The notes under the pieces: generated by a model
What the model saw: the letters and a program-made list of their open reading frames with translations, nothing else
Told to the model about the DNA's origin: nothing
The model's database searches: none
Position numbers and translations under genes: made by a program
Shown: in pieces, positions 37,833 to 64,000 of the stretch
Position numbering within the stretch: position 1 is the first letter of the stretch
Layout of the letters: each line of letters begins with the position of its first letter
NCBI GenBank assembly: GCA_963662945.1
Contig: OY759974.1
Span: 896,001-960,000, forward strand
Length of the DNA: 64,000 nt
Source: Arcobacteraceae bacterium
GTDB taxonomy: Bacteria > Campylobacterota > Campylobacteria > Campylobacterales > Arcobacteraceae
Reading direction: 5' to 3'

Positions 37833-37833
37833 A

Positions 37834-37910: not shown

Positions 37911-38158
37911 ATGAATACTTAGTTAATAATGATCTCTCATTATTGACTAGGATGTTTTAACATCTTTGTTAATAAATAATGTTCTGTTCTTTTAAGATTA
38001 TTCATATAATCTTTATAAACTAGATAGCAAGATGTCTTTATGAGATTAAAGAACTTTCGTCTCGATGTTGTACTATTTTTTACATCAATTTGTTATATCT
38101 TATTATATAACTTTTTATTCATTGAACTCAACTAAACGAATAGTTAAGTTATATCTTT

Positions 38159-39676
<1,518 letters not shown>

Positions 39677-40031
39677 AAATAAGCATTTCTACTTATTGGT
39701 TTGTTTAATCTTGACTTTTAAGTTTTTACCTAAAAATCACTGAATCTATTTAAAGATTCAATTATATTTATTTGTTTTTAGTTTTAAAACTAAAACTCAT
39801 AAAGTTTATAGACGAAGTTTATCAAATATAAATTACTCTATATTTAATTCTTCTTGTATCTAGTTTATAAAGATTACTTCTCAGTAATTTAAATAAACTT
39901 GATTTTATTTATTAACATTATTTTTTTTAAAGAACTTTTCCTAATTAATTTTTCTCTCTTCTTGAAGTTATTGAATCTAAACAACCCGTTTATACTCTCT
40001 TCTTAAAGTGTCTTACTTTAATTGGACGCGA

Positions 40032-40131: not shown

Positions 40132-40611
40132 CTATAAATCATAATTATCTATATATAATAATATATAAATTCTCTCTCTTTCATCAATATATTTCTTTGT
40201 TTGAACTAATTGTAAATATTCATATATTTTTTCTTGTGATAAATCAGATTGATCTAATTTTTTTTGTAACTCTTTTCTTGCTCTACTTCTTGCTAAATTT
40301 TCTTGGTAGTTTTTACCTTTAAAATGTGTATTAGCTTTTCCCACACCATAATATTGGTAATCAGCACTGTAACCTTTAATCCATAATGGAATAATATTAG
40401 TTGGTTCTTCTTGATCTATATTAGCTTTTAAAAGTCTTTTTATTTTAATATCTGCCAGTGATTCAAATACACCGTGAGGATATTGTTTTTTATATAACTT
40501 CAATAATTCAACATCACCACTATCTTTTACTTCATCCCAAAATAATAACTCTGCTTTATCTGCAAAAAGCATTGTAATTAATATTGTTAAAATAAATATT
40601 GTTTTTTTCAT
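40132..40611 (-). CDS. Secreted hypothetical protein with a possible LPP20-like C-terminal half
   Basis: Signal peptide; PLWIKG...YYGVGKA...ARSRARKEL; overlaps the mutS2 stop. Confidence 0.6.
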   Translation of the reverse strand: MKKTIFILTILITMLFADKAELLFWDEVKDSGDVELLKLYKKQYPHGVFESLADIKIKRLLKANIDQEEPTNIIPLWIKGYSADYQYYGVGKANTHFKGKNYQENLARSRARKELQKKLDQSDLSQEKIYEYLQLVQTKKYIDERERIYILLYIDNYDL

Positions 40612-42812
40612 AGTTTTATAACCTTTGCTCCATACCCACCCTCTTTTGCTGTTGCATCATTATAACTTTTTATACTTGGATGAGTATCTAAAAATTGTTT
40701 CACCGCATAAGCAAGTTTTCCTGTTCCTATTCCATGATATACTAAAACCTCATCAAATCCAGCAATTAAACTATCAGAAAGAAATTTATCTAAATTTTCA
40801 ATAGCTTCTTCTGCTCTTTGCCCATGTAAATCTAACTTCACATGTCCTGTTTGAGGCTTTTGGATATCTATTTTAACATTTTTAGGTTTTACTCTTGGTA
40901 TATTACCACTTCTTTTTAAACTTGATAAAGGAAGTTGTAATTTCATACCATCATTGGTCTCAACCATTGCTTTTTTCCCTTTGATTGATATAATGACACC
41001 TTTTGTATTATTATATTTTACAGTATCTCCAACTTTTAAATCTAATGGTTCTTCTACTTTTTCAACTTTAATTTGCTGTTTTTTTGTATGAACTTTATTT
41101 AAAATTCGATGTTGCTCTTTTGAATCATTTAATTTAACAGCTTTTTTTACTTCTTCAATGGCTTCTTTATATTCTTGTTCTAACTTATTTTTCTTTGCTA
41201 AAACTTCTTTATCTAAATTCTCTTTTTGTTCTTTTAAATTTTGCTCTAGTCTATTATTCTTTTCAATTTTTTCATCAAGTTGTTGTATCTTTTGTTTATA
41301 TTCTCTTTCAAGATCACTACTTCTTTGTATTAAATCATTTAATTTATCTTTATCTTCACCATAAACTTCTTTTGCTTTTTTTACAACACCTACAGGAATA
41401 TTATATCTTTGAGCAGTTTCAAAAGCATAACTTCTCCCGATTGTTCCTTGTAAAAACTCATAAGTTGGTTTTCTATTTTCTTCATCATAAAGTGCAGCTA
41501 TCAAATCTACTTCAGGATTTGAAGCTAATAAAGATGCTAATCTTTTATGATGTGTTGTCACAATGATTTTTATATTTTTACTTATAAGTTCTTCAATGAT
41601 AACTTTAAATAAACTCGCTGCTTCATCACTATCTGTTCCTAACTCAATTTCATCAACACCAACTATTGCATTTTGTTTTGTAAAAAGTTTACTAAACTCA
41701 ACCATACGACCAGCAAATGTTGAAATATCATTTTTCACATTTTGTGGATCATCCAAAATTGCATTGATATCTTTATAACTACCAACAACACTTGATTTAT
41801 CACAACTATATGGAATAAGATATTTTGACATATAAACAGCACTTAAAATTGATTTTAGAAGCATCGTTTTTCCACCAGCATTTACACCAGTAATCATAAT
41901 AACATTTTTCGTGAAATCTACAGTCACACTTTTTGCATGTTCTAACGCAGGATGTTTGAAATTAACTAGTTTTTGTATTTTATTAGCTTTATTTGATGGT
42001 AATATAAAATTAAGATTTTTATGTTTTGCAAAATGTATTCTTGCCTGATAATGGTCATATCTATCAAACTCTTTATTGATAAATCTTAAAAACATAAGAT
42101 GTTTTGATAATAAAAAACTAAATTCTTGAGTGATTTTATAAAGAATTTCATCCTTGAGATTAATCAAATCAGATTGTTTTTGTTTTAATTCACTCACACT
42201 ATGTGGCAATACATAAAAAAATCCACTTTGACTTCTATCTAATACTTTACATTGTAATACATGATTAAATCCAGCTCGTACCATCAAAGTTTGTTCCCCA
42301 TGAACTAAGTGTACTTGATGATCAACTAAATATGGTTGTAAATTTTTACTATTTATTACCCCATAAAGTTTTTGCTTAATAGCATCTCTATTTGTATATA
42401 AACTTTGATTTACCCTATCTAAATCTTCATCAAATCCGGATAACAGTTCACCCTTATCATCAAATGCATAAATAATTTTATCTAATTCATTAGGAATAAT
42501 AATTTTTTCAATCCACGATTCTAATTTTCCACTAAAAGTGAATTTCTTAAGATATGAAAAAAAAGTAATAATTTTTACAAATTCATATATCTCATAGATT
42601 TTTATATTACCTTGCTTTTGCAAATAATTTAATGCACTATCCAAATTATCTATTTTTTGTGGAGTTTTTAACTCAAAATTTTCTAATTCACTTAAAATTG
42701 TATGATGAAGGTTTATATCACCTTCTAAAATAACGCTTTTTTCTCTACAAAACAAAGACTGTAGATTTTCTATATGATTTACTATATCAAGTTTTTTTAC
42801 TAAATTTTCCAA
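40608..42812 (-). CDS. mutS2: Endonuclease MutS2
   Basis: ITGVNAGGKT, ISTFAGRM, DEIELGTD, TTHH; C-terminal Smr domain LDLHG...YHGIGTG. Confidence 0.96.
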   Translation of the reverse strand: MENLVKKLDIVNHIENLQSLFCREKSVILEGDINLHHTILSELENFELKTPQKIDNLDSALNYLQKQGNIKIYEIYEFVKIITFFSYLKKFTFSGKLESWIEKIIIPNELDKIIYAFDDKGELLSGFDEDLDRVNQSLYTNRDAIKQKLYGVINSKNLQPYLVDHQVHLVHGEQTLMVRAGFNHVLQCKVLDRSQSGFFYVLPHSVSELKQKQSDLINLKDEILYKITQEFSFLLSKHLMFLRFINKEFDRYDHYQARIHFAKHKNLNFILPSNKANKIQKLVNFKHPALEHAKSVTVDFTKNVIMITGVNAGGKTMLLKSILSAVYMSKYLIPYSCDKSSVVGSYKDINAILDDPQNVKNDISTFAGRMVEFSKLFTKQNAIVGVDEIELGTDSDEAASLFKVIIEELISKNIKIIVTTHHKRLASLLASNPEVDLIAALYDEENRKPTYEFLQGTIGRSYAFETAQRYNIPVGVVKKAKEVYGEDKDKLNDLIQRSSDLEREYKQKIQQLDEKIEKNNRLEQNLKEQKENLDKEVLAKKNKLEQEYKEAIEEVKKAVKLNDSKEQHRILNKVHTKKQQIKVEKVEEPLDLKVGDTVKYNNTKGVIISIKGKKAMVETNDGMKLQLPLSSLKRSGNIPRVKPKNVKIDIQKPQTGHVKLDLHGQRAEEAIENLDKFLSDSLIAGFDEVLVYHGIGTGKLAYAVKQFLDTHPSIKSYNDATAKEGGYGAKVIKL

Positions 42813-43824
42813 TGTTCAACTTCGGCTTTATAATTTTTTTCTCTGGTATTTGTTTTTGTTTTGAATTTCTAAGTTCTGTATCTAGATTAATCTCTTCTCC
42901 AAATACTTCTCTTTCTTTAAATTCTTCAACTAAAGATTCCAACAATTTTATACTAAATTCTGGTATATAATTATTTATTTTATAACTTTCTTCACTTATT
43001 GTTAGAATCTTAACATCTTTATTGCTATCAATATCATTTTGATAAACATATCCATAACTTTTTCTGATTTTTAACAACTCTTCTTTTATCGCTGGATGTA
43101 AATAATATAGTTTTGACATATTCGTTTCTATTCTATAGTTACTATTGTCAAAATCTATTAACTCCCATTTTAGATTAAGTATCTTTTTTTTCTTTTTACC
43201 ATGTATTAAAAAAAGAAAAAATGATATTACAAGCGGTTTGTTATGAAATAAAATATTAACAACATCATATATTTCTGTTATTTTTTCTTGTATCAATTTA
43301 ACATATTGTTTTTCTTGTGCATATTTGAAATTAAGTTTTTTACAAGGACTCAATAGAATTAAATTTTTTTGTACTGCATAATCAAAAACGCGTATTATAA
43401 AATCAGAGGTTATTTTATAAACACTCAATTTAAAATGATTTTGTTGTTTACTGAAAATATGTTTAATATCTTCTTCTGTAATAACTTCAATAGGAATCAT
43501 ACCTAAATAATTTTTAATATATTTTTCATAATATCTTTTTTCTATAAAATCAGCAACATCATGAAACTCAACATATTTACTAATAAAATCATCAAATGTT
43601 AATTGTTCTTTTTGTATTAATTGTTTATTCTTGTTTTTTTCTTTTTGTAATGTAGCTTTTGCTACTGATATTTTCATGTCAGAAGTCCACTTTTTTTGTG
43701 AAAAATCTAATGTACCTTCTATATACTCATCTAAATCTTTAAACTTATAATAAAAGAGGGAAGTGTTTTCATCACACCACAACTCTTCAGTTAATTGCTT
43801 AGTAAAATATGATTTATTATCCAT
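42787..43824 (-). CDS. Tyrosine-recombinase (phage integrase-like) homolog lacking recognisable catalytic residues
   Basis: Core-binding-like YEKYIKNYLG...ITEEDI...VFDYAVQKNLILLSPC; box I-like FLFLIHGKKKKKILNLKWELIDF; no HxxR or catalytic Tyr box. Confidence 0.65.
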   Translation of the reverse strand: MDNKSYFTKQLTEELWCDENTSLFYYKFKDLDEYIEGTLDFSQKKWTSDMKISVAKATLQKEKNKNKQLIQKEQLTFDDFISKYVEFHDVADFIEKRYYEKYIKNYLGMIPIEVITEEDIKHIFSKQQNHFKLSVYKITSDFIIRVFDYAVQKNLILLSPCKKLNFKYAQEKQYVKLIQEKITEIYDVVNILFHNKPLVISFFLFLIHGKKKKKILNLKWELIDFDNSNYRIETNMSKLYYLHPAIKEELLKIRKSYGYVYQNDIDSNKDVKILTISEESYKINNYIPEFSIKLLESLVEEFKEREVFGEEINLDTELRNSKQKQIPEKKIIKPKLNIGKFSKKT

Positions 43825-43834
43825 TTTTATTTAA

Positions 43835-44440
43835 TTAATCTTTATTCTTATTAATAAAAATTGCTAAAGAAACTCTATCTTTCACTTTTAATTTTGTAAA
43901 TATATTACCAATATGTTTTTTTACAGTTACCAACTGTATATCTAATTGCTTAGATATCTCTTTATTCGAATCTCCCTTAGCAACCAACTGAGCAACTTCT
44001 AATTCTTTTGATGAAAGCACTGATAATTTCTTTTTATCTATTTGTTTTTCCGTATCAACAGTTATATTTTTTATTATATAATTCATCAATTCTGGATAAA
44101 GCCAAACATTTCCTTCTTGGACAGTTTTTAAAACTTCTTTTACAATAATCTTACTTGTTTTTTTACCAATATAACTCTTGCATCCTTTTTTGATCATCAA
44201 AGTACCATGAGCTAATCTTGGTACTTCTACTAAAGCTATAATATTTAATAATTTGGATACATTATCAATGTAAAAAAGTGTTTGTTCAACTGTTTTAAAA
44301 TTATCTAGGTCTAGAACTAAAATATCATTAGTTTGAAAATTCTTCTCGTCTAGATAAAAATCTTCTTCAACCACTCTTGCTTCAAACTCATTTGTCCAAT
44401 AATTTTTGATGATTTCTTGTTGTGAATAAATATAAATCAT
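43835..44440 (-). CDS. NarL/LuxR-family regulator with an atypical receiver domain
   Basis: C-terminal HTH LSSKELEVAQLVAKGDSNKEISKQLDIQLVTVKKHIGNIFTKL. Confidence 0.9.
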   Translation of the reverse strand: MIYIYSQQEIIKNYWTNEFEARVVEEDFYLDEKNFQTNDILVLDLDNFKTVEQTLFYIDNVSKLLNIIALVEVPRLAHGTLMIKKGCKSYIGKKTSKIIVKEVLKTVQEGNVWLYPELMNYIIKNITVDTEKQIDKKKLSVLSSKELEVAQLVAKGDSNKEISKQLDIQLVTVKKHIGNIFTKLKVKDRVSLAIFINKNKD

Positions 44441-44441: not shown

Positions 44442-46259
44442 TTATTCCTTCTGTGTTGTTTTTAGTATTGGTTTCAGTAAAAATGACATGATACTTTTCT
44501 TACCAACTAAAACATCTGCATTTACCATCATACCAACTTTTATCTTATACTTTTCATTATCTAAAAGATAATTCTTTTTTGTTTTTACATAAATCATATA
44601 AAAACTATCCCCTGTATCTTCATCCACAATAGTATCTGGACTTATATTAGTTATTTTTCCTTCTAAATCTCCATAAATAGAATAATCAAATGCAGTTACT
44701 TTTAATTTTACTGTTTGACCTACATGTAATTTAGCTATCTCTTCAGGTTTAATTTTCACTTCTGCTACCATCTCATAATTGTCTGGTACAATTGTTATGA
44801 TATCAGCTGATGGTTCAATAGAACTTCCTACTGTATGCACAAAAATTTCTTTTACAACTCCATCTACTGGCGAACGAATTACCGTTCTTGCTATAATATC
44901 TTCTAGATTTTTTTTAGTTTCTTCTAGTCTTAATAATTCTGCAATCGTTTCATTTAATTGTAATGCTGATTTATTTTTAAATGTTAATTTTGTTTCCTCA
45001 ATACCATTTTTTATCTCTTGAATTTGAGCATCACTTTGTTTTATAACTTCTTGTGCACTTCTTAATGCTCCTCTTGAATCATTAAGCTCTCTTTCTAATT
45101 GATTTAATTCATATTTTGTAAATATTTTTTTTGCTTCTAATGCTTTTTTTGCTTTAAATTCTTCTTCGAGAGTAATTAAATTTTCTTTTAATACATCGTA
45201 CTTATTTTGTGCATCTACTAAAACACTCTCTTGATATTTTAGTTGTTCTAATTGTTTAGATATATTTTGTTGTAATTCTTGTTGATTTGATAAAAAATAA
45301 TGTTTTTCATTTTCAATCATACTATTATCACATTCACCATTACAAACTATTTTTTGCATAGGAAGATCGTCTATCTCTGCCATCAATCTAGATCTTTTAA
45401 CTTTCAATTCCATTATTCTAATATGATTTTCTTCTAGCTTACTTTTATAAGATATGGGACTCAATTTTACTAATATTTGTCCTTTTTTAATGCTATCACC
45501 TTCTTTTACGTAAATATGCGAGACCACTCCCCCTTCGAGATTTTTAAGTTTTTGTACTTTTGAAGTTGGAATAAATTGACCTTGTCCCCGCGCAATTTCA
45601 TCTATATCAAAACTCACTGCATATATTAAAAATAAGAAGATAAAACCTACAACAATTTTTACCACTAAACTTACTTTATTTGAGACTGTATCCAATACAG
45701 CGGCGCTAGTACTGGATACAAAACTTAGTGTAGAATCATGATACTTTTCTTGTGACATCATTTTGACTTGTAATTTATGGAGTAATCTTTGACAGGATAT
45801 ATCATGAATGACAAAAATAAATCCACTTAATTCATTATCTATGAATAGTGGATTTATAATAGTTTTAGTAAAAATCTCTTTATTATCTACTGTCGTTAAA
45901 ACAAGTTCCGTACCCCAAGATTCTTGGTCATGGTTTTTTACATATTCGCAACCATTATAAAATTTTTCTGCATACTCTGGTGAAACTATAAAAGTAAAAC
46001 TTTTATTTGTAAAAGTTGCATTATTATAGCCAAAAAGATCACTAAAAGCTTTGCTTACAGACTTGACTGACAAATTTTTATCTACTGTACATGAAATCAT
46101 ATTTTCATCAGCAATAGTATTGAAGTCATTCATTTGCCGTAAAGTATCTTCATCTATCAAACTAGCTAACTTACTATGACTCTCTTTAGCTGCTAATTCT
46201 TTTTCAAGTTTTTCAATCTTTAAATTAAGATTTTCTACTATTATCTCTTGACTATTCAT
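44442..46259 (-). CDS. HlyD-family T1SS periplasmic adaptor with an N-terminal PAS domain
   Basis: C-part: IDEIARGQG, NLEGGVV, IRSPVDGVV, AFDYSIYG, KVGM; N-part: VDKNL..KSVSKAFSDLFGY...GFIFVIHDIS. Confidence 0.9.
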   Translation of the reverse strand: MNSQEIIVENLNLKIEKLEKELAAKESHSKLASLIDEDTLRQMNDFNTIADENMISCTVDKNLSVKSVSKAFSDLFGYNNATFTNKSFTFIVSPEYAEKFYNGCEYVKNHDQESWGTELVLTTVDNKEIFTKTIINPLFIDNELSGFIFVIHDISCQRLLHKLQVKMMSQEKYHDSTLSFVSSTSAAVLDTVSNKVSLVVKIVVGFIFLFLIYAVSFDIDEIARGQGQFIPTSKVQKLKNLEGGVVSHIYVKEGDSIKKGQILVKLSPISYKSKLEENHIRIMELKVKRSRLMAEIDDLPMQKIVCNGECDNSMIENEKHYFLSNQQELQQNISKQLEQLKYQESVLVDAQNKYDVLKENLITLEEEFKAKKALEAKKIFTKYELNQLERELNDSRGALRSAQEVIKQSDAQIQEIKNGIEETKLTFKNKSALQLNETIAELLRLEETKKNLEDIIARTVIRSPVDGVVKEIFVHTVGSSIEPSADIITIVPDNYEMVAEVKIKPEEIAKLHVGQTVKLKVTAFDYSIYGDLEGKITNISPDTIVDEDTGDSFYMIYVKTKKNYLLDNEKYKIKVGMMVNADVLVGKKSIMSFLLKPILKTTQKE

Positions 46260-48428
46260 CTAGTTACCACCACTTAACTTACTTAATATTTCCTCTTTTG
46301 GTCCATCCATTATAATTTTACCACTGTCCATCACAATTATTCTATCCACTAATGCTAAATTTGATGGTGTATGTGTTATTAGTATAAGTGTTTTTTCTTT
46401 TAAAAACTCTTTTAAATTTTTTAAGACTTTATTTGTAGTTCCACTATCAAAAGATTTAGTAGGTTCATCAAGAATAAATAATGCACTATCATCTATAACT
46501 GTTCTTGCTAATGAAATAGCTTGTGCTTGACCACCAGATAAATTTTCACCTTTTTCAACAATTGGAAGTTCAAAACCTTTAGGATGTTTATTAATAAACT
46601 CTGTTGCACAACTAATTGTTGCAGCTTTAAGTAAATCATCATCACTTGCTTTATGATTTTTTATCATTATGTTACTTCTAGCAGTTCCTGCAAATAATAC
46701 TATCTCTTGTGCCATATAAGAGATATTTGACCGTATCTCTACAGGGTCAATTTGTTGTACATCAATACCATCAATTAAAACAGAACCCTCATCATGATAA
46801 TAAAATCCTAGTAGAAGTTTTTGAATAGTACTTTTTCCACTTCCTACTTTTCCTAAGATAGCAACTTTTTCCCCCTCTTCAATCTTAAAATTAATATTAA
46901 TTAATTGCTTTGTTTCAGTTCCAGGATATGAAAAACTTACATTTTTGAATTCTATATTTCCTTTAAAAGCAGGTCGTCGAACAAATTGTTTATCACTAGG
47001 ATGTTCTGATTCTAAATTCATAACATTTTCGATAGATTGATATGCAGATACAATATGTTGGTAATATGCAATCATACCAGCTACTTGCCCCATAGGTCCC
47101 AATGCCCGGCCAGCCATAATAACTGTTGCGATTAATGCCCCTGTTGTAAGAGTTTGTGCATCAACCATATAAGCACCAAAAATAATAATAAGCACTGTAT
47201 TTAACTGTGTAACAAAAGAAGATACTGTCCCAATAGCAGCTGAAAGTGTTTTTGTTTTAATCCCTTTATCTGCTATTTCCCCTGTTGCTTCTTCCCATTT
47301 ATATTGAGATAAACTTAAAGCATTTAAACTCTTAATAGTTTCAAGATTTGAAATAGATTCTATAAGAACGCCATTTTTTAAACTACTTGCACCTGCAGTT
47401 TCTTTTACACTTTGCAACATTTTATCTTTGATACTATAAGTATAAACTAAAATTATCAGCATAGAAACAACTGTAACCCACACTAAATGCCCTGCTACAA
47501 AATAAATTGTAAATAAAAAGATAAAAACAAATGGTAAATCAATAACAATAGCAATAGTACTTGAAGCCATAAAACTTCGTATAGATTCAAACTCTTTTAG
47601 TACATTTGCAAAAGACCCAATAGGTTTTGGTATTACAGATATTTTTAAATCCATTACTTTTTCAAAAATAATAGAGGACATAATAATATCTGCTTTTTTT
47701 CCAGCAACTTCCAGTAAATACGTACGGGTAAAACGTAAACCTAAATCTATCATATATACAACAACCACCCCTAAAGCAAAAACCCAAAGTGTATCAAAAG
47801 CTGAAGTTGGGATAACCCTATCATAAACATTCATAGTAAAAATTGGTGTTGCTATCATAAAAAGATTTATCACTAATGATGCTAACAAAACATCTTTGTA
47901 AATATATTTTACTGTTTGTATAGTATCCCAAAACCAATGTTTATGTTTATTGTCTATAAGTTTAAAATCATCTGATTCAAAACGAAACTCTCTTTTTAAA
48001 AAGAAAGCTAAACCAAAATATTCTTCTTTTAAATCTTCCGTAGAAACTTTATTAACCACTTCTCCAATCTCTGGAAGAATGACATTAGCATATTCTCTTG
48101 TTTCATCAAAAGACTCTAAAATACAAGCATTTACTTCATTTGGATTATCTGTTTTTAAAAGAATAATACAAGGCAAAACCAATTTACTGATTTCATCTAA
48201 AGAAATTTTTGAGATACTTGTTTTAAATCCTGCTTTGTGTGCAGCTCTACTAAACAATCCTCTTGAAGCATTAGCTTTTACAGAAAAAAGTTTTGGAGAT
48301 GATTCACCTTCTGCAATTGGTAATCCTTCACTTAATACTTCAGCACTATATGGTTTTCCATGTAATTTAGAAAATAAAACTAATGAATCTAAAACTGAAC
48401 TTTCTATATGTTTTCTAAAGTTTGCCAC
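46260..48428 (-). CDS. Type I secretion ABC permease/ATPase (LapB/LssB-like) with a C39-like N-domain
   Basis: PIFTMNVYDRVIP, Walker A GKVGSGKST, LSGGQ, LDEPT. Confidence 0.95.
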   Translation of the reverse strand: MANFRKHIESSVLDSLVLFSKLHGKPYSAEVLSEGLPIAEGESSPKLFSVKANASRGLFSRAAHKAGFKTSISKISLDEISKLVLPCIILLKTDNPNEVNACILESFDETREYANVILPEIGEVVNKVSTEDLKEEYFGLAFFLKREFRFESDDFKLIDNKHKHWFWDTIQTVKYIYKDVLLASLVINLFMIATPIFTMNVYDRVIPTSAFDTLWVFALGVVVVYMIDLGLRFTRTYLLEVAGKKADIIMSSIIFEKVMDLKISVIPKPIGSFANVLKEFESIRSFMASSTIAIVIDLPFVFIFLFTIYFVAGHLVWVTVVSMLIILVYTYSIKDKMLQSVKETAGASSLKNGVLIESISNLETIKSLNALSLSQYKWEEATGEIADKGIKTKTLSAAIGTVSSFVTQLNTVLIIIFGAYMVDAQTLTTGALIATVIMAGRALGPMGQVAGMIAYYQHIVSAYQSIENVMNLESEHPSDKQFVRRPAFKGNIEFKNVSFSYPGTETKQLININFKIEEGEKVAILGKVGSGKSTIQKLLLGFYYHDEGSVLIDGIDVQQIDPVEIRSNISYMAQEIVLFAGTARSNIMIKNHKASDDDLLKAATISCATEFINKHPKGFELPIVEKGENLSGGQAQAISLARTVIDDSALFILDEPTKSFDSGTTNKVLKNLKEFLKEKTLILITHTPSNLALVDRIIVMDSGKIIMDGPKEEILSKLSGGN

Positions 48429-48439: not shown

Positions 48440-50362
48440 TTAAATTTCACCTAGCATATATTCTTTTATCAAACCAAGGTTTTTTAATATTTCATATTTT
48501 GAAAGAATAAAATCATATTTCGTTTCTATATAACTTCTTTTTGCCTCATATACACTATCTGTTACATCCAAAAGATCATTAGCATCAATTTTCGCAAACT
48601 TATAATCGTAATTTGCAGCGACATATTCTTCTTCTCTTTTTTTAACCATATCGCCTGTAAAGTTTTGTTTCGAATCTAACATATAATATTTATTGTAAGA
48701 CAAATCTAATGTATACCTTGCATCTCTAATGACTTCGTCTTTTTTAGCTATTTTTTGTTTATATTCATAAAATTTTTTTGCATAATCTGCTTCATCTGCT
48801 CCACCAGCATAAAGATTTATTGATGCTTCTACAGACAGAGATGACTCTTTTGTTGTTGTATCATATGTATTTAAAGTATATTTTTCATCTAAAACACTAC
48901 TTTTCCCTACAAGATTAATAGATGGAAGAAAAGATACATTTGCTTTTTCTAACTTTTGTTTATACAACAAAACATTATTATTTGCTTCTTTAATTGCTGG
49001 TGCATATTTTTCAATATCTTCTAATGCTAAAACAACATTTCCAAAATATTTACTTGTTGGATTTTCCATTTTAAATAATTTCATCTCATTATCATCAAAA
49101 TCTAAATATTTTTGCATTTTTGATATAGAATCATTATATCTTTTTGTATCTTCTTCAAAATTCATAAATCTACTAATAGATCTTGCTTCCACTTTTCTAA
49201 AATCTCTTAATGCAGTTATACCATTTTGAAATCTAATTTTCTCTTTTTCAACCCAGTCCATATAATGAGTATAATTTTCTCTTGATAATTTGTAAATATC
49301 TTTTATTTTTTGAATTGTTATATATGCCTCAACTAAAGAATAAATTAAATCATCTTCAATTTGCTCTTTAGAATACTCTGTTGATTTATAATTTGCTTGT
49401 GTTATTTCTAATTGATTTTTATCTTTAAATCCATTAAAAAGATTATACCTCACTGTAATATCTCTTGAACCATCACTATCTTTTACAGCCGCTGTTTCAT
49501 CATCATAACTTGTATAGTTTTTATAACTATAATTAACATCAATAGTTGGTTTAAAAGCTGCTTTTGCTGTATTAATATCTTCATTTGTAGCTTTTAAGAG
49601 TTCTATTTGCTCTTGAAGTGTAGGATTTTCATTAAGAAGTCTCTGTACATATTGAGAAATAGTTTTGATATTTTGTTCTGGAATATCAGTATTGTGTTCT
49701 AATGTTTCCTCTATATTTTCAATTTTTACTGGTTCTATTTGTTCAGGTTCTTCTATTTTTGTTTCTTCTTTAACTATTTTTTCTTCTTTTGGTAACTCTA
49801 CATTTTCATTTAAAATAACAATAAATTCTATTCTTCTAGATTTATATACATCTTCCTCACCATTTTCTTGATAAATGAGCTTTGATGATGAGTTTCCAAT
49901 AGTAATAAATTTCTCATTGATAAAATCTTTATTATCTTCTACAGTGTTATCATTAAGCCTCTTTATAAAATTTAAAACACCATCCGCTCTTTCCTGAGAT
50001 AAAATTAAATTTCTTTGATATTTTTCCTCTTTTGTTTTTCCTTTATTATTTTCAGAAGATGTATATCCATTGATCTCTACTTTTTTAATATATTTTTCAT
50101 AAGGCTTTAATATTTCAATATATCTTGGGAAAAAATCTTTTAATATTAATTCAAAAGATTGTGAAATAGTTGCACTTCCTTTCATATAAAGCATATTAAT
50201 ATTCTCAAATCTTAATCTCAAATTTTCTTTATTAAATTGAACTTCCCATACTCCAAAATCCCTTTTAAATTCTTGGTTTATAGTTTGATAAATTTCATCT
50301 TTAACTGTATCAGCTAAAAGATTAACCGTAATACAAAAAATAAAAATAAAATTTTTAATCAT
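48440..50362 (-). CDS. TolC-family outer-membrane protein with an N-terminal OmpA/MotB-like domain
   Basis: N-part: INGYTSS, NLILSQERA, SRRIEF; C-part: AKAAFKPTID, YNLFNGF, FLPSINL, NLYAGG. Confidence 0.88.
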   Translation of the reverse strand: MIKNFIFIFCITVNLLADTVKDEIYQTINQEFKRDFGVWEVQFNKENLRLRFENINMLYMKGSATISQSFELILKDFFPRYIEILKPYEKYIKKVEINGYTSSENNKGKTKEEKYQRNLILSQERADGVLNFIKRLNDNTVEDNKDFINEKFITIGNSSSKLIYQENGEEDVYKSRRIEFIVILNENVELPKEEKIVKEETKIEEPEQIEPVKIENIEETLEHNTDIPEQNIKTISQYVQRLLNENPTLQEQIELLKATNEDINTAKAAFKPTIDVNYSYKNYTSYDDETAAVKDSDGSRDITVRYNLFNGFKDKNQLEITQANYKSTEYSKEQIEDDLIYSLVEAYITIQKIKDIYKLSRENYTHYMDWVEKEKIRFQNGITALRDFRKVEARSISRFMNFEEDTKRYNDSISKMQKYLDFDDNEMKLFKMENPTSKYFGNVVLALEDIEKYAPAIKEANNNVLLYKQKLEKANVSFLPSINLVGKSSVLDEKYTLNTYDTTTKESSLSVEASINLYAGGADEADYAKKFYEYKQKIAKKDEVIRDARYTLDLSYNKYYMLDSKQNFTGDMVKKREEEYVAANYDYKFAKIDANDLLDVTDSVYEAKRSYIETKYDFILSKYEILKNLGLIKEYMLGEI

Positions 50363-53113
50363 CTACATACCTTTTATTAACAAATACATATTTAATTTAT
50401 TATTATCTAAAGAGATACCTAAATCAAACACTTTATATGATTCAGTCTTTGCAAGAGTTTCAACGATTTCGTCTTTATTCACTTGAAGAGTAATTTTTTT
50501 ATTTGTATTTTTTGATACTATATCCCCTAATGATAATAAAATTTGCTTTGAAATATCATGTAAACCATTATCAATCGTTTCTACAATATCTCCATCTGTA
50601 TCATCAATCATAATATTAAATATTTTAGACAAAGTTTTTGCTGGAATAAAAAACTTCCAATCAACATTTTTGCTACCATTTGCCACTAAACTATTAGTAA
50701 ATAATACCCCATTCATATTTTTAATATTCTGATGATAAATTTGTTCTATCTGAATCTTCTCCAACGTCGTTTCTAAGATATTATTTAATGTTGTTAATAA
50801 AGAATCTTGTATTAAAGTATATGGGTCTAATTTCGCTTTTTCTGCTTTTGAAGTTACTTTTTTTTGAATTTTAATAGGAGTTGCAATCACGTTATTAATA
50901 GTTTTGGCTTCAGATTGAACTAACTCCTTTTTTTCTTCCCCAATCTCTGTTTTTTTTATATCTTCCACAACTTCTTCATCTTTTAACTGTTCGACATCTA
51001 CTGTTTTACCAAAATATTCATAAGGAACAATCTCCTTATTTTCAACAATCATATTTACAAAAGGAATCAAGTCTTTATCTAGTCTTGTATATATTTCAAT
51101 TATATCTTGAGCAAATATTATACTTATTTTAAAGACATTCTCAAGTTTAGACAGATCTCTTTTTGTTATCTCTTTTATCTCTGATTGTGTGTATTTTCCA
51201 TTTTGTAAATCATGGAATTTTTTTTGATTTATTATATTACACATATTTATAGACAAGGTATAAATAAATTCTTTTGCTGTATCTACTACATCTTTATTCA
51301 TCTCATCTACTAACTCAAACTTATTATCACTTATTAAATTTAAGATTTTATATGAAGATATACAAGAGATATAAAAATTCCATTTTGATTCTATATCTTT
51401 AAATTTTAATAGACCATCAACTTCAACCATTTTTTCTCTTGGAATTGAATTTGAATCAATAGCTTCGATATTAATATTTACTAGTTTTTCTGAACTTAAT
51501 TCTTCAATTGTATGTTTGATACCTTCAACAATTTCATAAGAAATATCCGTATTCTTTTTTTCTTCTTCTAATTCTAGTTTTTCATTTATTCGAATATCTT
51601 TTAATAATTCAGCTGTTTCTTTTGATGATTTATAATTCACCAAATCTTGTGTCATATCCACTAAAGCAACTATTATAATTCTCTCTGTAACATGCTTTGA
51701 ATAATCCATTTCATTAAACTTCACTATAAAATGGTGTGGATCGCCGTTTATAGACATAACTACTTTATAAAGTTTTCTTGGATTTTGCAATAAATAGTCA
51801 ATCCAAAATTCTCCATCAATATATTGATCCCATATATAATTTGGTGCTTCATACTTTTCAAAAAGTTCACAAACACATTTATGCTTCTTTTTAAAACCAT
51901 CAAAAGTTCCAAATCTATTGAAAAATCCCATAAATCTATTATTTGCCTTTGTTATTTCTTTTCCATTATGCATAAACATTAGATTTGGTTGCATATTAAA
52001 TAAATTATCTAATTTTTTATCATTAAAATCAAGCTGATCTGTTTTTTCTTTTAAATCTTCATTGATAATTACTAATTCTTCATTTTCTAATTTTAAATCT
52101 TTAAAAACATTTGCCATATATAAATATTTTATGAAAAAGAATATAAGAAATATTGAAATTATAGTCACAATAATATGTGCTTTTTGCATAAAATTCAAAT
52201 CTTGATAATCTATTTCATCAAGTGTTCTAAATATTATTGCTTTTGCTATTATGCTATTATCGAGATTTTTAATATTATATTTAGATATAAGATGATCGCT
52301 TTTCTCATGGACAATATAATTGTTATTATCATCATCACAAAACTCATTTGCATCATTTTGTTTTATCACCCTTAAAAGATAATCATCTGCATTGGAATTT
52401 ACTACATAACAATCATTTATAAAGTTTTTAGAATAAGAAAGTTCTTGTTGTATTATATGAGAATCTCTTTTATTTAATAAAATTACTATTTTATACCCTC
52501 GTTGTGAAAAAATATCAGCTAATGCATCAAAATGTACATTAACTCCAAAATATCCTAAAAAAATATTGTTTTCATCAAAAATTGGTATTTTGTTTGTAAA
52601 TGTTACACCATATTTACTGGTTTGTATTGTAGTATATACTCTTGGATATTTTATTAGATGTTCCATTTGAGGATCATCTTTCACTAAATCATCACCTTTT
52701 AAATTTGTCCAACTCCTTTTAAAACTTTTACCATTAGCATCAATAACTTCTGCTTGAATATCAACATACTCTTTTTTAGTTCTCATCTCTTCAAGTAGTT
52801 TATCCATATCAAGTAAATCTGGATTATTTTGTTTCAATGATTTTTTAATCATAACATTTTTAGACAACGATGATGAAACAAGTAAAGATGTATTAAGCTT
52901 TTCATTAAGCATGACATCAAATTTCTCTAATATATCTTGATCAACTTTTTTATATATTTTATTTTTATATTCTTGTGTTTTTAAAAAATATATATCTTTA
53001 GAAATAAAACCAATAATTAGAATCAAAAATAAAAAAAGCGAAGTATAGATTGTTTTTGTACTAACAACATGATTATTAAGAATTTGTTTCTTGAGTTTTT
53101 TTAGTTTTTTCAT
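50363..53113 (-). CDS. Membrane sensor-like protein: TM, Cache-like, TM, PAS-like, then two CheC/FliY-like domains; no kinase or cyclase output
   Basis: Two hydrophobic segments, SFKRSW..LKGDDL Cache-like region, LFNMQPNL...ANNRFMGFF PAS-like region, duplicated C-terminal domain. Confidence 0.7.
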   Translation of the reverse strand: MKKLKKLKKQILNNHVVSTKTIYTSLFLFLILIIGFISKDIYFLKTQEYKNKIYKKVDQDILEKFDVMLNEKLNTSLLVSSSLSKNVMIKKSLKQNNPDLLDMDKLLEEMRTKKEYVDIQAEVIDANGKSFKRSWTNLKGDDLVKDDPQMEHLIKYPRVYTTIQTSKYGVTFTNKIPIFDENNIFLGYFGVNVHFDALADIFSQRGYKIVILLNKRDSHIIQQELSYSKNFINDCYVVNSNADDYLLRVIKQNDANEFCDDDNNNYIVHEKSDHLISKYNIKNLDNSIIAKAIIFRTLDEIDYQDLNFMQKAHIIVTIISIFLIFFFIKYLYMANVFKDLKLENEELVIINEDLKEKTDQLDFNDKKLDNLFNMQPNLMFMHNGKEITKANNRFMGFFNRFGTFDGFKKKHKCVCELFEKYEAPNYIWDQYIDGEFWIDYLLQNPRKLYKVVMSINGDPHHFIVKFNEMDYSKHVTERIIIVALVDMTQDLVNYKSSKETAELLKDIRINEKLELEEEKKNTDISYEIVEGIKHTIEELSSEKLVNINIEAIDSNSIPREKMVEVDGLLKFKDIESKWNFYISCISSYKILNLISDNKFELVDEMNKDVVDTAKEFIYTLSINMCNIINQKKFHDLQNGKYTQSEIKEITKRDLSKLENVFKISIIFAQDIIEIYTRLDKDLIPFVNMIVENKEIVPYEYFGKTVDVEQLKDEEVVEDIKKTEIGEEKKELVQSEAKTINNVIATPIKIQKKVTSKAEKAKLDPYTLIQDSLLTTLNNILETTLEKIQIEQIYHQNIKNMNGVLFTNSLVANGSKNVDWKFFIPAKTLSKIFNIMIDDTDGDIVETIDNGLHDISKQILLSLGDIVSKNTNKKITLQVNKDEIVETLAKTESYKVFDLGISLDNNKLNMYLLIKGM

Positions 53114-53244
53114 TGCAGATATTCCATATTATAATGCGTTTGCAAGATTATACTAAAGTATACCTTAAATAAAATTTTTGATTATATTTATTATTACTTA
53201 TAATGTACTAAAAGATAGAGAAAATCTCTATCTTAATTAAATTA

Positions 53245-56200
53245 TTATGATTGGTCTACTTGAACATTTGAATCAATCATAATCTGAATTGTTTGCAATT
53301 CATCTCCAGATCCTGCAGTAGATGTAAATGTATTAAATTCATTTCCATTTTCATCAATTGTTGTTTCCCCTGGTGTCCATATATCACTATCTAATGATAC
53401 TCTATCATCTGCATCACCTAGTATAGTAAGAGTATTATTATCTCCTGTCATATTAAGTACATCTTGAGCATCTAAATTTGATATTTCATGTGAACCTTCT
53501 GTCATATCTATAGAATTTATATGTGCTAATTCACTATCAACATCAATATTATTAAAATCTATATCAATATCATCCATATCAAATGTAAAGTCACCATCAT
53601 CAGATATATCTCCCATAGCATCTAAAGAGTTATCTTCATTTGTAACAACTGTACTTGTATCTCCACCATTAATTTCTGTTGAAGTTACACTTGCTGTAAT
53701 GCCACTTATAGAATCATCATCTAATTCAGATGGTGCTGATAAAGTTACTGTTGCATCACCATTTTCATTTGGTGTGATTGTATATGTTCCATCTAAGTTT
53801 GCACTGATTTCATTTCCATTAGCATCTGTTAATGTTGCACCATCTGGTATATTATTCAATGTAATATCACTTAACGTTTCACTTCCATCTGTGTCAGTTA
53901 ATCCTGCATTTAAGTCTATATCATAAGAATATACTGTTTCTGTATTATCTGGAATAGAAGAATCCGTACCCAAAGATACAATACCATCACGAAATTGAAT
54001 ATTTTCTACATTTTGTGTTGTAACTTCATAATGATCTAGATCCCATTCTCCCCATGCATTATAACCAACTTGTTGGATAGTATGAGTACCATCACCATTA
54101 TCTATAATATTAAATCTTACACTACCATTATCTCGAGGTGCGTCAATCACTAAAGTATCTGTTCCTGATCCACCATCAATATTATGTCCTGTTCCAAAAT
54201 TATTCCACAATGATACAGGAGCTTCTATGGTATCATTACCAGCACCTGCATTTATCTCTTTATTATCACCCATTCCTACATTAATAATATCTGATGCTTC
54301 TGTACCATTAATAGTTTCATTATTTGTCCAATAATTATTTGCACTATTAATTACATTTCCATCAATAGGAATTACCTCTGCAGAGACTGCTATAACTTCA
54401 AAACTATCAGACCAACTATTACCTGAAATTTTTATTGAACTAAATTCCTCTTCAGAAGTTATTGTTTGCACTTGATTTCCATTATTTACATCTATCACTA
54501 TAGTATCTACAATATTTCCATTTTCATCTAGTAATTCAACTTTTGCATCATCTTGTCCCATATTATTTCTAAATGTTACATCAACACTATGAGTATTTCC
54601 ACCTAAGTTATACTCTGCTGTATCCCAACCACCATTTACATAATCTGTTGTTGTGTCTGTAAATGTTACTGTTTGTTCTGGATTAACTTCAGTTACAACT
54701 GCATCACCTATTTCCATATCTAAAGTTGGAGCTGATGCTTCATGATCTACTCCTGTTACATTTACAGTTATATCAGCTGTATCTGTATCAACTCCATCAC
54801 TTACTGTATAAGTAAATGTTACATCTGTATTTTCACCTTGATCTAATGTTGCAAAATATTGGCTTGGTGTGAATTCAACTTCACCATTAGGTGTTACTAT
54901 TGCTGTACCTAATTCATTTCCATCAGTATCTGTTATAGTTGCAACTTGTCCATTTGTTACATCTTGTCCATCAATAGCTACAATTGAAAGTTCATCACCA
55001 TCTGAATCTGTATCATTATTTGTTGCATCTACGATTACACTACTATCTTCATCTGTAGTAGCTATATCATCTGATGCTTCTGGGGCATCATTTGGAATAT
55101 AAGCAATGTCTGTATCTATTACTGTATTTGTATCACCTGTACTTAATTCTGTACCCGTTGCCACTATACTTAATTCAAACTCTCCAATACCAGCTGGAAC
55201 TGTTATTGTTAAACTATCTTCTATAGATGTTGCACCTTCTGGTACTGATATAGTCCAAGTTCCATCACCATTATTGATACCTTCACTTAAGGTCGCACCT
55301 TCTGGCACGCCTGTTATAACCACACTTAAACTTTCACTTCCATCTGTATCACTAAGTGCTGCACTAATATCTACTGGATATACATAACCATTAACTACAT
55401 CCTCTGTAGTCATCATAGGTTCTACCACAATTTCTTGTGAAACCATTGGTACTCCACCCTCTATTTCAGAAGCATCTACTTGTTGTGCTGGTGCATCTAC
55501 AAGTACACTTTCGGTGTAAGTCTCTGTAGTAGTTTCCTCTTTTACCCAACCTGATTGTCCCTCATAAGTCACTTCTATATCTTTTACATTTACAATCTCA
55601 TCTGAAGCAGTTGAAGCAACCATAAAATCTAATTGTGCTTGACCATTATCATCTAAATACACCTGATACTCATAAGTATATGTTTCTGATTGATCCCAAC
55701 CTAAATAACTTACATCATCTGACTCATAGGTATTAGCGTTTGAATTACTTGAATAATAATTTACATCCAGCTCTTTTCCATTTGCACTAACACTAAAATA
55801 GTCATTTGTACTTGTAGTGTTATTATCCCAACTACCTTTTACTTCCATTTCAACAGTAATTGTCACAAGTCTATTAGCTAAATCTGGCCCAAAATCAAAT
55901 ACTTGACTTGATTCATGATCTTCTGGATTAAATCCATCAACTTTACTATTTCCAACATTTCCAATATTTGTTATATCAGCACTTTGTGTTATTGTTTGAT
56001 GTTCTGTTTCACTCCAAGAGATTCCAGCAGCTTCCATCGCATCATAATCAGGTACTAATCCTCCAGCTTCAACAGTAACTGTTTCTGGTAATCCTCTTCC
56101 TTGAATAGATTCTACTTCTATATCTGAACCATTTGCAGTCAATCTAACTGCACTAAACTCTTCACCAAAACCATATCCTCTTTCATCATTACCTGTAGGA

Positions 56201-59200
56201 TATGTAGTTCTTGTAGCTATAACTTCCCCGGCATCATTTAAAAACTCAATTTGTAAACTTCCATGAGTAAAATGATTAAAATCTAGTTCTATATTTTTTG
56301 TAGTTTCATCTAAAGTGATAGTTGTGCTTGTTCCACTTTCAATAGTTCCTGGTGTATGAGAAAATTCATTTCCTAAAGATTCAAATGTAGTAGTTTCTGT
56401 CGCCTCTTTCATAATTGGATCAGTTTCTACTACATGTGTTACTTCTCTTTGAACCTCTTGTTCAACAAGTACTTTTGGTGCATTTTCATCTATTACATAA
56501 AAATTTCCTTCTGAATCTATTGTATATCCTAGTTCTCTTAATGCATCAGTATCGACTTGATTTGTATCTACCTCTTGATAGTATGAACCATCTCTTTCAT
56601 AGATTCCAGCTTCCTGATTTGCTACTGTATCTACCACATCAACTTGTGCCATTACAACTGTTGCATCACCTACATCAATAGATGCTGTTAAATCATCTGC
56701 TTGTGTATCGTTTGAAACAAAGTTACCAGTTGCAGTATCATATGTACCATCTGCAAATTTTATAGTTTCTACATTTCGTAGCTCTGTAACATCTCCTATT
56801 CCATCTCCATCACTATCACTTGCTGCACCCTCAGTCACTATTATATTTCCTTGTGCATCTGTTGTGATTGTATAATCTGACATATCTTTACCAAATGTTA
56901 CTGTATCGTTTCCATCGCCACCATCGATTACTACACTATCATTTGTGTCATCATTTGTACTTGTTACATATCCATTTTCATTTGTTCCTGAAAGTGTATC
57001 ATCCGTATTGATTGTATCATTTCCACTTCCTGCCATTACAAAGTCATCTGTTGATTCAGTATTTCCATTTGACCAATTTCCATGCCAATAATGTGTTGTA
57101 TCTGTTTGTTCAGTTGTATTTCCTGCACTATCTGTTTCTGTTACACTAAAAAATTCATTATCATTTATTGGTGTTCCTGTTAAATTTTCAATTTGAATAG
57201 ACCAAGTACCATCTGCTTGCACCTCTGTTGTTCCTACTGCTTGATTATCCTCATTGTATAATGTAATTGTATTTCCAACTTCTGCACCAGTTCCAGTCAT
57301 AGTTACTGATGTATAATCACCATCATTATCTACTATATCTGTTATTGATAATAAGTCTGCATCACTTGCCTCAGTATCTACTGTGATATCTCTTGCACCT
57401 TCACTTGTTACTGTGTTACCTGCTGCGTCTGTTGAAGAAACTGATACTGCAACTGAGTTATCAGCTACTAAATCTGTTGTTGCTACATCTACTGAATAAG
57501 TTCCATCTGCACCAACTGTTGTTTCATAATCAGTTCCATTTACTGTTACTGTTACTGTGTCACCCTCAGCGATATCTCCACCGTTTGCAGTTCCACTTAC
57601 TGTGATTGTTGCTTCTCCACTTTCACTAGCATTGATAATATCATCTCCTGCAATTGTAGAAACTGTTACTGTTCCTGCATCTGCTGTTGTATCTACTGTG
57701 ATATCTCTTGCACCTTCACTTGTTACTGTGTTACCTGCTGCGTCTGTTGAAGAAACTGATACTGCAACTGAGTTATCAGCTACTAAATCTGTTGTTGCTA
57801 CATCTACTGAATAAGTTCCATCTGCACCAACTGTTGTTTCATAATCAGTTCCATTTACTGTTACTGTTACTGTGTCACCCTCAGCGATATCTCCACCGTT
57901 TGCAGTTCCACTTACTGTGATTGTTGCTTCTCCACTTTCACTAGCATTGATAATATCATCTCCTGCAATTGTAGAAACTGTTACTGTTCCTGCATCTGCT
58001 GTTGTATCTACTGTGATATCTCTTGCACCTTCACTTGTTACTGTGTTACCTGCTGCGTCTGTTGAAGAAACTGATACTGCAACTGAGTTATCAGCTACTA
58101 AATCTGTTGTTGCTACATCTACTGAATAAGTTCCATCTGCACCAACTGTTGTTTCATAATCAGTTCCATTTACTGTTACTGTTACTGTGTCACCCTCAGC
58201 GATATCTCCACCGTTTGCAGTTCCACTTACTGTGATTGTTGCTTCTCCACTTTCACTAGCATTGATAATATCATCTCCTGCAATTGTAGAAACTGTTACT
58301 GTTCCTGCATCTGCTGTTGTATCTACTGTGATATCTCTTGCACCTTCACTTGTTACTGTGTTACCTGCTGCGTCTGTTGAAGAAACTGATACTGCAACTG
58401 AGTTATCAGCTACTAAATCTGTTGTTGCTACATCTACTGAATAAGTTCCATCTGCACCAACTGTTGTTTCATAATCAGTTCCATTTACTGTTACTGTTAC
58501 TGTGTCACCCTCAGCGATATCTCCACCGTTTGCAGTTCCACTTACTGTGATTGTTGCTTCTCCACTTTCACTAGCATTGATAATATCATCTCCTGCAATT
58601 GTAGAAACTGTTACTGTTCCTGCATCTGCTGTTGTATCTACTGTGATATCTCTTGCACCTTCACTTGTTACTGTGTTACCTGCTGCGTCTGTTGAAGAAA
58701 CTGATACTGCAACTGAGTTATCAGCTACTAAATCTGTTGTTGCTACATCTACTGAATAAGTTCCATCTGCACCAACTGTTGTTTCATAATCAGTTCCATT
58801 TACTGTTACTGTTACTGTGTCACCCTCAGCGATATCTCCACCGTTTGCAGTTCCACTTACTGTGATTGTTGCTTCTCCACTTTCACTAGCATTGATAATA
58901 TCATCTCCTGCAATTGTAGAAACTGTTACTGTTCCTGCATCTGCTGTTGTATCTACTGTGATATCTCTTGCACCTTCACTTGTTACTGTGTTACCTGCTG
59001 CGTCTGTTGAAGAAACTGATACTGCAACTGAGTTATCAGCTACTAAATCTGTTGTTGCTACATCTACTGAATAAGTTCCATCTGCACCAACTGTTGTTTC
59101 ATAATCAGTTCCATTTACTGTTACTGTTACTGTGTCACCCTCAGCGATATCTCCACCGTTTGCAGTTCCACTTACTGTGATTGTTGCTTCTCCACTTTCA

Positions 59201-63999: not shown

Positions 64000-64000
64000 G
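57374..64000 (-). repeat. Tandem array of 315-bp units (21 full copies plus 12 bp visible) encoding 105-aa Ig-like domains
   Basis: Period 315 bp (57374, 57689, ...); unit TTADAGTVTVSTIAGDDIINASESGEATITVSGTANGGDIAEGDTVTVTVNGTDYETTVGADGTYSVDVATTDLVADNSVAVSVSSTDAAGNTVTSEGARDITVD. Confidence 0.98.

Follow-up and report, generated by a model that had tools for sequence, protein, structure and literature searches.

Introduction

An integrase gene is routinely interpreted either as the signature of a mobile element or as a relic in decay. MrpR (YopR) of the Bacillus prophage SPbeta is reported to be a repressor with a tyrosine-recombinase fold that has lost the recombinase function; it comprises only the core-binding (CB) and catalytic (CAT) domains, with the Tyr and the Lys retained (Table 3, PMC10516654). 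SroF of phi3T is reported to bind DNA by means of an integrase-like fold (bioRxiv 10.1101/2025.11.27.690993). The Crypton-derived domesticated genes of eukaryotes are reported to be tyrosine-recombinase transposases turned host genes (PMC3212892). A review of mobile-element recruitment names tyrosine recombinases and integrases, within its available portion, only as enzymes of integration and excision (PMC8987985). In this study, we analyzed a stretch of 64,000 nucleotides (nt) from an Arcobacteraceae bacterium (assembly GCA_963662945.1, contig OY759974.1, positions 896,001 to 960,000 of the forward strand), referred to as the window, and in it the gene IntL, an integrase derivative located directly behind a LuxR-type regulator gene in a cluster for a type I secretion system (T1SS) and a giant adhesin. 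A dead integrase in a T1SS/adhesin operon was not described in the literature searched, which is weak evidence that no such case has been published, because most subscription journals lay outside the coverage of the search.

Taken alone, the statement that IntL is catalytically dead and maintained by selection is, in our judgment, almost certain. The wider statement, that IntL is an exapted dead integrase acting as an optional, nonenzymatic accessory of the LuxR/T1SS/adhesin module, we regard as about evenly balanced between true and false when taken as a whole.

Results

The IntL reading frame

The gene and its segments were located in the window as follows, with the basis of each assignment in brackets.

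42787..43824 including the stop codon, minus strand: IntL, catalytically dead tyrosine-integrase derivative, 345 amino acids (aa) (open reading frame, ORF)
43615..43824, minus strand: IntL residues 1-70, beta-sheet and helix, arm-type-like N-terminal domain (AlphaFold model AF2 and VIA)
43330..43596, minus strand: IntL residues 77-165, core-binding (SAM-like) domain (sub-threshold Pfam match and VIA)
42895..43329, minus strand: IntL residues 166-310, catalytic-domain remnant that stops before the His III/Tyr helices (VIA and alignment of the catalytic columns)
43192..43194, minus strand: IntL codon 211, Arg I position, Lys (alignment)
42937..42939, minus strand: IntL codon 296, Arg II position, Glu (alignment)
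42790..42894, minus strand: IntL residues 311-345, variable disordered linker followed by the conserved basic tail IIKPKLNIGKFSKKT (predicted local distance difference test, pLDDT, <50)

The sequence-only reading of this DNA had described an uninterrupted 345-aa ORF starting 10 nt after a luxR gene and overlapping mutS2, and had quoted peptide strings from it; each of these observations was reproduced. The translation of the window gave 345 codons without an internal stop, in local DNA of ~23% G+C, where stop codons arise so readily that a frame of this length is no chance product. In the window sequence, the gap between luxR and IntL is 10 nt and the overlap between IntL and mutS2 is 26 nt; mutS2 begins with TTG at 42812, inside the 3' end of IntL, and the last 8 codons and the stop codon of IntL coincide with the mutS2 start. 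The quoted strings AVQKNLILLSPC, HGKKKKKILNLKWELIDF, and FSIKLLES correspond to residues 150-161, 208-225, and 290-297, respectively. In agreement with the sequence-only reading, alignment to active integrases placed box I of IntL at LKWELIDF and the box II position at FSIKLLES, where codon 293, the His II position, encodes Lys.

Homology and predicted fold

The Pfam model Phage_int_M matched IntL residues 97-163 (E 1.3e-4, 22.6 bits, under the cut-off of 27). PF00589 gave zero matches to IntL at E <= 1, short of its gathering cut-off of 27.1 bits; two relatives, P0011 and P0016, reached 22.4 and 19.2 bits, both below that cut-off and over profile positions 5-81 only. A word-indexed search retrieved 15 full-length orthologues of 340-353 aa with 42-97% identity, together with one PF00589 integrase, P0017. 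When a profile of IntL and its 15 orthologues (16 sequences) was compared with the active integrase P0017 by hhalign, the two aligned over 287 columns with a probability of 99.1 and an E value of 1.2e-18. A phmmer search with IntL against 1.8 billion representatives yielded 165 matches at E <= 1e-3. Three of them were additional members of the IntL clade (P0018-P0020); the matches beyond the clade were mostly ~360 aa long, and PF00589 was present in all eight that were scanned (P0017 and P0021-P0027). The IntL clade consists of 19 database proteins and one genome copy (in genome G116), and its members carry only the public names "phage integrase SAM-like domain-containing protein" or "hypothetical protein". 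Scans of IntL with NCBIfam, PHROGs, and PADLOC returned nothing meaningful, the best matches being phrog_10778, a family of unknown function, at E 0.01, and a Cas4a2 model at E 1.4e-4, which we regard as a composition artefact.

Two AlphaFold models of IntL were compared with known structures, the first built from 16 clade sequences (pLDDT 69) and the second from 100 sequences including active relatives (pLDDT 83). In the second model, residues 1-310 are confident and residues 311-345 are disordered (pLDDT <50). The top Foldseek match of both models was full-length lambda Int (1z1b; E 6.9e-4 for the first and 4e-5 for the second), and the other matches comprised the catalytic domains of Tn1549 Int, XerD, P2, and HP1 as well as SAM-like CB domains. 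The CB domain of IntL gave a VIA Z of 13.5 to 2kd1 and of 11.5 to the lambda Int CB domain 2oxo (root-mean-square deviation, rmsd, 1.8 over 87 aligned residues). Residues 174-317 matched the XerD C-domain 5dcf (Z 9.4, rmsd 3.7, 125 aligned), the P2 integrase 5c6k (Z 8.7), and the HP1 integrase 1aih (Z 8.5), so that the CAT matches together span Z 8.5-9.4 and rmsd 3.4-3.7 over 120-125 residues.

The N domain was predicted with strands at residues 15-40 and a helix at 48-70 (AF2, pLDDT ~90), a topology that fits the three-stranded sheet and helix of arm-binding domains. Residues 2-69 aligned with the P4-type arm-binding domain 3rmp (VIA Z 5.9, rmsd 4.0, 61 aligned), the N domain matched 3jtz at Z 4.5, and the alignments to full-length lambda Int begin at residues 7-9 of the IntL models. 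No Pfam arm-domain match was obtained for IntL, and no arm-type repeats were found for it. These weak to moderate model-based matches are suggestive only of a likeness between the IntL N domain and the P4-type arm-binding domain. Judged by descent and by predicted fold, IntL is genuinely homologous to the tyrosine integrases of the lambda/P4 type and a member of their superfamily.

Loss of the active site

The catalytic columns were taken from the 100-sequence alignment, in which 19 IntL clade members were compared with 80 active relatives.

Arg I (K211 in IntL): K in 11, R in 5, and S, A, and T in 1 each of the clade; R in 80/80 active relatives
Acidic position beside Arg I: variable in the clade; E in 78/80 active relatives
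His II (K293 in IntL): H in 0/19 of the clade; H in 76/80 active relatives
Arg II (E296 in IntL): E in 17 and Q in 2 of the clade; R in 80/80 active relatives
His III: segment absent in the clade; H in 76 and W in 1 of the 80 active relatives
Tyr nucleophile: segment absent in the clade; Y in 77/80 active relatives

The ~20 residues that bear His III and Tyr in active integrases (...ALGH.....KYL) have no counterpart in the clade, which carries the variable linker and IIKPKLNIGKFSKKT instead, and in IntL no LGH...Y box follows FSIKLLES. The copy in G116, the 20th clade member, has S at Arg I, Q at Arg II, and the tail KPKLSIGKFA. The IntL profile also detected 16 other integrase loci in the bacterial family; every one of them retains the two arginines and 14 retain His III and Tyr as well, the remaining two being cut by contig ends. 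IntL lies outside the definition of a tyrosine-recombinase enzyme (Arg I, Lys-beta, His II, Arg II, His/Trp III, and Tyr). Because Arg I, His II, Arg II, and the His III/Tyr segment have been lost, IntL is unable to cleave or rejoin DNA by the known mechanism. In a tree of 60 proteins, built with the catalytic columns retained, the 19 dead members formed one clade with a long stem (SH-aLRT 99) nested among active integrases, and this topology demonstrates a single origin of the IntL clade. A split integrase was also considered and rejected, since the next gene is mutS2, which overlaps IntL, and no downstream ORF could supply the Tyr segment.

We consider it extremely improbable that IntL still recombines DNA through unconventional chemistry or with a nucleophile provided in trans. 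Such activity might be sought in the Arg that five clade members keep at Arg I and in the nearly invariant K238 near the beta-hairpin; it is opposed by an Arg II position that is acidic or an amide in every member, by the absence of His II, and by the deletion of the His III/Tyr segment, with a tail that has no conserved Tyr, Ser, or Thr. Nor does the own genome encode a paralogue from which a Tyr might come.

Conservation and selection

Eighteen of the 19 clade members are 338-368 aa long, P0019 being a 300-aa fragment, and none of the copies contains a stop codon. Across 16 aligned members with identities down to 42%, 46 columns are invariant. By region, 10 of 70 columns are invariant in the N domain and 26 of 145 in the catalytic-domain remnant; this remnant and the tail are the best-conserved regions of the protein. 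The majority fraction in the tail IIKPKLNIGKFSKKT is 0.88. Its core, KPKL.IGKF, is retained at loci where mutS2 does not follow, which indicates that the core is constrained at the protein level.

The dN/dS ratios obtained by the NG86 method, which compare five genomes and are rough because synonymous sites were saturated (dS >= 1), were 0.19-0.47 for IntL, 0.12-0.37 for LuxR, 0.13-0.23 for HlyD, 0.07-0.12 for the ABC exporter, and 0.12-0.17 for MutS2; the IntL range is similar to that of LuxR. Near-identical contigs from two metagenome runs differed in IntL by 16 synonymous and 7 nonsynonymous changes, the latter in 6 codons. With 182 synonymous and 853 nonsynonymous sites, this corresponds to a pN/pS of ~0.09 (binomial P 6e-8), in a table of single-nucleotide polymorphisms (SNPs) some of whose rows rest on single low-depth contigs. 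Two changes in codon 31 occur on one contig and jointly replace L with E without creating a stop. LuxR showed 6 synonymous and 6 nonsynonymous changes in the same two runs (pN/pS ~0.24). Scanning metagenome contigs for IntL added only a partial orthologue (L029) and a distant one (L028), which do not suffice to take the dN/dS analysis further. These sequence comparisons show that IntL is under purifying selection and is no decaying relic.

It is accordingly very unlikely that IntL is merely what is left of an island or prophage integrase, inert and with its frame open by chance or only because of the operon position. The loss of all catalytic residues, the absence of IntL from most syntenic loci, and its marginal place in an accessory gene cluster would all suit a relic. 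A relic does not fit the pN/pS of 0.09 at low divergence, the 46 invariant columns and the length conserved down to 42% identity, the zero stops in any copy despite DNA of ~23% G+C, or the acquisition of a new conserved tail.

The sequence-only reading had proposed that IntL descends from an integrase, that its catalytic residues are lost, and that the gene is maintained instead of decaying. All three proposals withstood the analysis: the hhalign match to P0017 and the Foldseek and VIA matches of the AlphaFold models lead to tyrosine recombinases, the R-H-R-H-Y active site is gone in 19/19 clade members, and the pN/pS of ~0.09, the dN/dS of 0.19-0.47, and the absence of stops in the orthologues indicate maintenance.

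Linkage to luxR and distribution

Six genomes carry IntL (G000, G119, G123, G071, G077, and G116). In 6/6, IntL is immediately preceded by luxR, the two genes being -1 to 10 nt apart, and the HlyD gene lies upstream of luxR in all five IntL contigs that reach that far. Downstream of IntL, mutS2 was found in G000, G119, G123, and the metagenome locus L029, and other genes were found in the other three genomes. The constant upstream LuxR and the variable downstream gene indicate that the secretion/LuxR module, and not mutS2, is what IntL travels with. This arrangement suggests that IntL is probably made together with the LuxR-type regulator.

Among 184 genomes of the bacterial family, IntL occurs in 6 and a LuxR match at E <= 1e-25 in 49. 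Four further loci have HlyD and LuxR followed by neither IntL nor mutS2, and two distant loci served as outgroups in the locus comparison. The LuxR of the window is 58-60% identical to some LuxRs from genomes lacking IntL, compared with 46-54% to other LuxRs from IntL-bearing genomes. No tRNA was found in the IntL loci (0/6); of seven active-type integrase loci scanned for tRNA genes, only L026 has them. The own genome contains no other match to IntL at E <= 10, which makes interference with a resident paralogue unlikely.

These data also bear on the proposal that IntL acts outside the adhesin/T1SS module, either by blocking an attachment site against related elements or by influencing the expression of mutS2. 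Related integrases are common in the bacterial family (16 active-type loci in 15/184 genomes), and the IntL stop overlaps the mutS2 start in three genomes and one metagenome locus, both of which speak for it. Nevertheless, IntL is preceded by luxR in every genome but not followed by mutS2 in 3/6; a second IntL match at E <= 10 is lacking in the own genome, which leaves no paralogue to interfere with; and no att-like repeat was identified. We therefore regard a target outside the module as improbable.

Evidence on DNA binding and partner binding

The adhesin upstream region and the intergenic region between the adhesin gene and the 916-aa gene were read for conserved noncoding elements, and only one strongly conserved element was found in the operon.

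53147..53169, minus strand: promoter-like 23-mer ending in TATAAT (conservation across genus genomes)

This 23-mer, TTTAAGGTATACTTTAGTATAAT, contains a GTATAC/GTATAA direct repeat with a 10-nt period and ends in the -10-like TATAAT. Of the 28 genus genomes, 12 contain it with 0-2 mismatches, and IntL is absent from 9 of these 12; a reversed-pattern control was present in 1 genome. This conservation contrasts with the saturation of synonymous sites in the genes on either side. The element is likely the promoter/operator of the T1SS operon and possibly a LuxR site. It was rejected as an IntL binding site because it is equally conserved in genomes lacking IntL. A related string, TATACCAAAGT, precedes the adhesin gene (minus strand, L032 ~5590) and is also present in G123 (L057 ~1680).

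One alignment column of LuxR, column ~30, was the only one of ~205 with disjoint residue sets between the two groups of genomes. It reads L, S, Y, Y, F, and Y in the 6 IntL-bearing genomes, and D in 9, E in 1, I in 1, and a gap in 1 of the 12 genomes lacking IntL; as a lead linked to IntL, this sequence difference is weak. The predicted complex of IntL and LuxR scored 0.00 against a mark of 0.32 and gives no evidence either way.

A serious rival to a DNA-binding role is that IntL is a protein-protein adaptor, in which the body would act as a scaffold and the C-terminal peptide would dock LuxR, a T1SS component, or another host protein, with little or no sequence-specific DNA binding. An adaptor is consistent with the loss of net positive charge in the CB and CAT segments and with the tight coupling of IntL to luxR. 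The most conserved parts, the CAT remnant and a short tail placed after a variable disordered linker, are typical of a linear docking motif, and LuxR column ~30 separates IntL-bearing from IntL-lacking genomes. The same column, however, lies in a poorly aligned loop and covers three IntL-bearing lineages only, no partner was identified, and the N domain of IntL retains a modest positive charge together with invariant aromatic and basic residues. On balance, we judge the adaptor unlikely.

The host gene cluster

On the minus strand, the genes follow in the order adhesin, terminator-like hairpin and promoter-like element, 916-aa gene, OmpA-TolC, ABC, HlyD, LuxR, IntL, and mutS2. The features outside IntL are given below.

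53245..64000, minus strand: 3' part of a giant Ig/cadherin-repeat adhesin gene, ~5,427 aa, running past the window (open frame; Pfam Big_9, Cadherin_4, Big_13)
50363..53113, minus strand: 916-aa protein of no known family, first gene after the promoter-like element (ORF)
48440..50362, minus strand: OmpA-TolC outer-membrane factor (Pfam)
46260..48428, minus strand: ABC exporter (Pfam)
44442..46259, minus strand: PAS-HlyD membrane-fusion protein (Pfam)
43835..44440, minus strand: LuxR/GerE-type regulator (Pfam GerE, E 3.2e-18, residues 140-195)
40608..42812, minus strand: mutS2 (Pfam MutS_V and Smr)

The adhesin frame extends to L032:5531. G123 differs from the window by a 94-aa ORF (L057 1748-2032) that separates its adhesin gene from the conserved promoter element. 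The 916-aa protein had no Pfam match at E <= 1e-4 and no PADLOC match, and fragments homologous to it occur in L002 and L004. In the outer-membrane factor, an OmpA-family domain (residues 61-174) is fused to a TolC-like OEP domain. In the same genome pairs, the T1SS ABC exporter showed 81-90% aa identity compared with 75-81% for the housekeeping MutS2. PAS_9 matched the N-terminal part of the HlyD-type protein (residues 58-155, E 6.5e-9), and this PAS domain is kept in related loci; such a fusion of a PAS sensor to the secretion adaptor HlyD is unusual. The N-terminal 130 residues of the LuxR-type protein had no Pfam match; inspected by eye, they may be receiver-like, lacking the N-terminal acidic pair. 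Beyond mutS2, the window is 37-49% G+C at ~34500-40000, compared with ~25-30% around it, and contains short ORFs only; this region is probably an rRNA operon. An LPP20-like lipoprotein gene lies beside it at 40132-40611.

Discussion

The function of IntL is probably a nonenzymatic one. IntL descends from a lambda/P4-type tyrosine integrase and has kept the three-domain body (N, CB, and most of the CAT fold), with the His III/Tyr segment replaced by a flexible linker and the new conserved basic peptide KPKLNIGKF. On the reading that we prefer, that of an exapted accessory of the LuxR/T1SS/adhesin module, it would be translated together with the LuxR-type regulator that closes the T1SS/giant adhesin operon. 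Most likely, it would serve as a site-specific DNA-binding or DNA-bridging factor through its N domain and basic tail, and it would modulate LuxR-dependent transcription in the manner of the dead-recombinase repressors MrpR and SroF. By analogy with these repressors, a regulatory or architectural role is plausible.

Several observations weigh against this reading. An IntL-specific DNA target was not found in the noncoding regions of the operon that were read. The median net charges of the N, CB, and CAT segments are +3.5, 0, and 0 in the clade (n=19), compared with +8, +6, and +6 in active relatives (n=81), a difference that argues for a weakening of the core-type DNA-binding surfaces. The second AlphaFold model is biased to the integrase fold, as active integrases are in its alignment. 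Conservation of SKKT in the tail may be owed partly to the overlapping mutS2 start, and the SNP table of IntL pools strains of the two metagenome runs and is incomplete, with 4 rows missing. Eleven genomes of the same genus have HlyD-LuxR-mutS2 with no IntL and no room for the gene. In a tree of HlyD and LuxR from 22 loci, which excludes G116 because its contig lacks HlyD, the five IntL rows fall into two separate well-supported clades, forcing at least 2 changes. This patchy presence indicates that the gene has been lost or moved repeatedly and that the module works without it.

The sequence-only reading had taken IntL to be kept as a DNA-binding or regulatory protein. That claim goes beyond the present results: an IntL-specific site was not found, most of the positive charge is lost, and the gene is missing from 11 syntenic loci. 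On the distribution of its sequences, IntL is a dispensable, optional accessory and no core regulator. A single origin of IntL combined with two HlyD and LuxR clades implies either that the gene was acquired early and lost several times afterwards or that recombination has transferred it between modules. The clade is about as old as its host secretion module.

A more ambitious version of the preferred reading would make IntL the first cellular (nonphage) lambda-type integrase turned noncatalytic co-regulator. Using its arm-type domain and new basic tail, it would bridge DNA sites, work with an atypical LuxR-family regulator, set the expression of the ~5,400-aa adhesin and its dedicated T1SS, and thereby give some Arcobacteraceae lineages a different attachment program as an optional add-on. 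We hold this full version only tentatively and would sooner expect it to fail than to stand.

The IntL clade is neither mobile nor decaying; its members are enzymatically dead and still selected. IntL offers a testable case of exaptation outside phages with a different architecture, in which the N domain is kept, the Tyr segment is absent, and a new tail is present. Since close relatives with and without IntL share the same operon, the effect of the gene on adhesin and T1SS expression is directly measurable. For annotation, IntL-like proteins are no evidence of an integrative element.

Comparison with known systems

The Crypton-derived genes resemble IntL only in principle, as tyrosine recombinases that became host genes. 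They differ in belonging to another kingdom and in their unrelated origin.

The lambda/P4-type integrases, the nearest being the ~360-aa proteins P0021-P0028 of the same bacterial family, share a common ancestry with IntL (hhalign 99.1). They also share the domain order of N beta-sheet, CB, and CAT and the box I LKWE.IDF. In contrast to them, IntL has no R-H-R-H-Y, lacks the ~20 His III/Tyr residues, carries a new linker and KPKLNIGKF, and has a lower charge.

MrpR and SroF are like IntL in keeping the tyrosine-recombinase fold without the recombinase residues, and they appear among its structural matches (8a0a, Foldseek E 8e-3; 9rgl, Z 10.2; 9rd5, Z 9.9). A search of IntL against PDB sequences at E <= 10 returned only 2kj5 and neither MrpR nor SroF. 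IntL differs from MrpR by its additional N domain and by the absence of the Tyr segment, which MrpR keeps. By sequence, IntL is no relative of the two repressors: no sequence relation to them was detected, and it nests among the integrases of its own bacterial family. MrpR and SroF are lysogeny repressors of Firmicutes phages, whereas IntL is chromosomal and belongs to a secretion/adhesin operon of Campylobacterota; by analogy, IntL may at most work as these repressors do.

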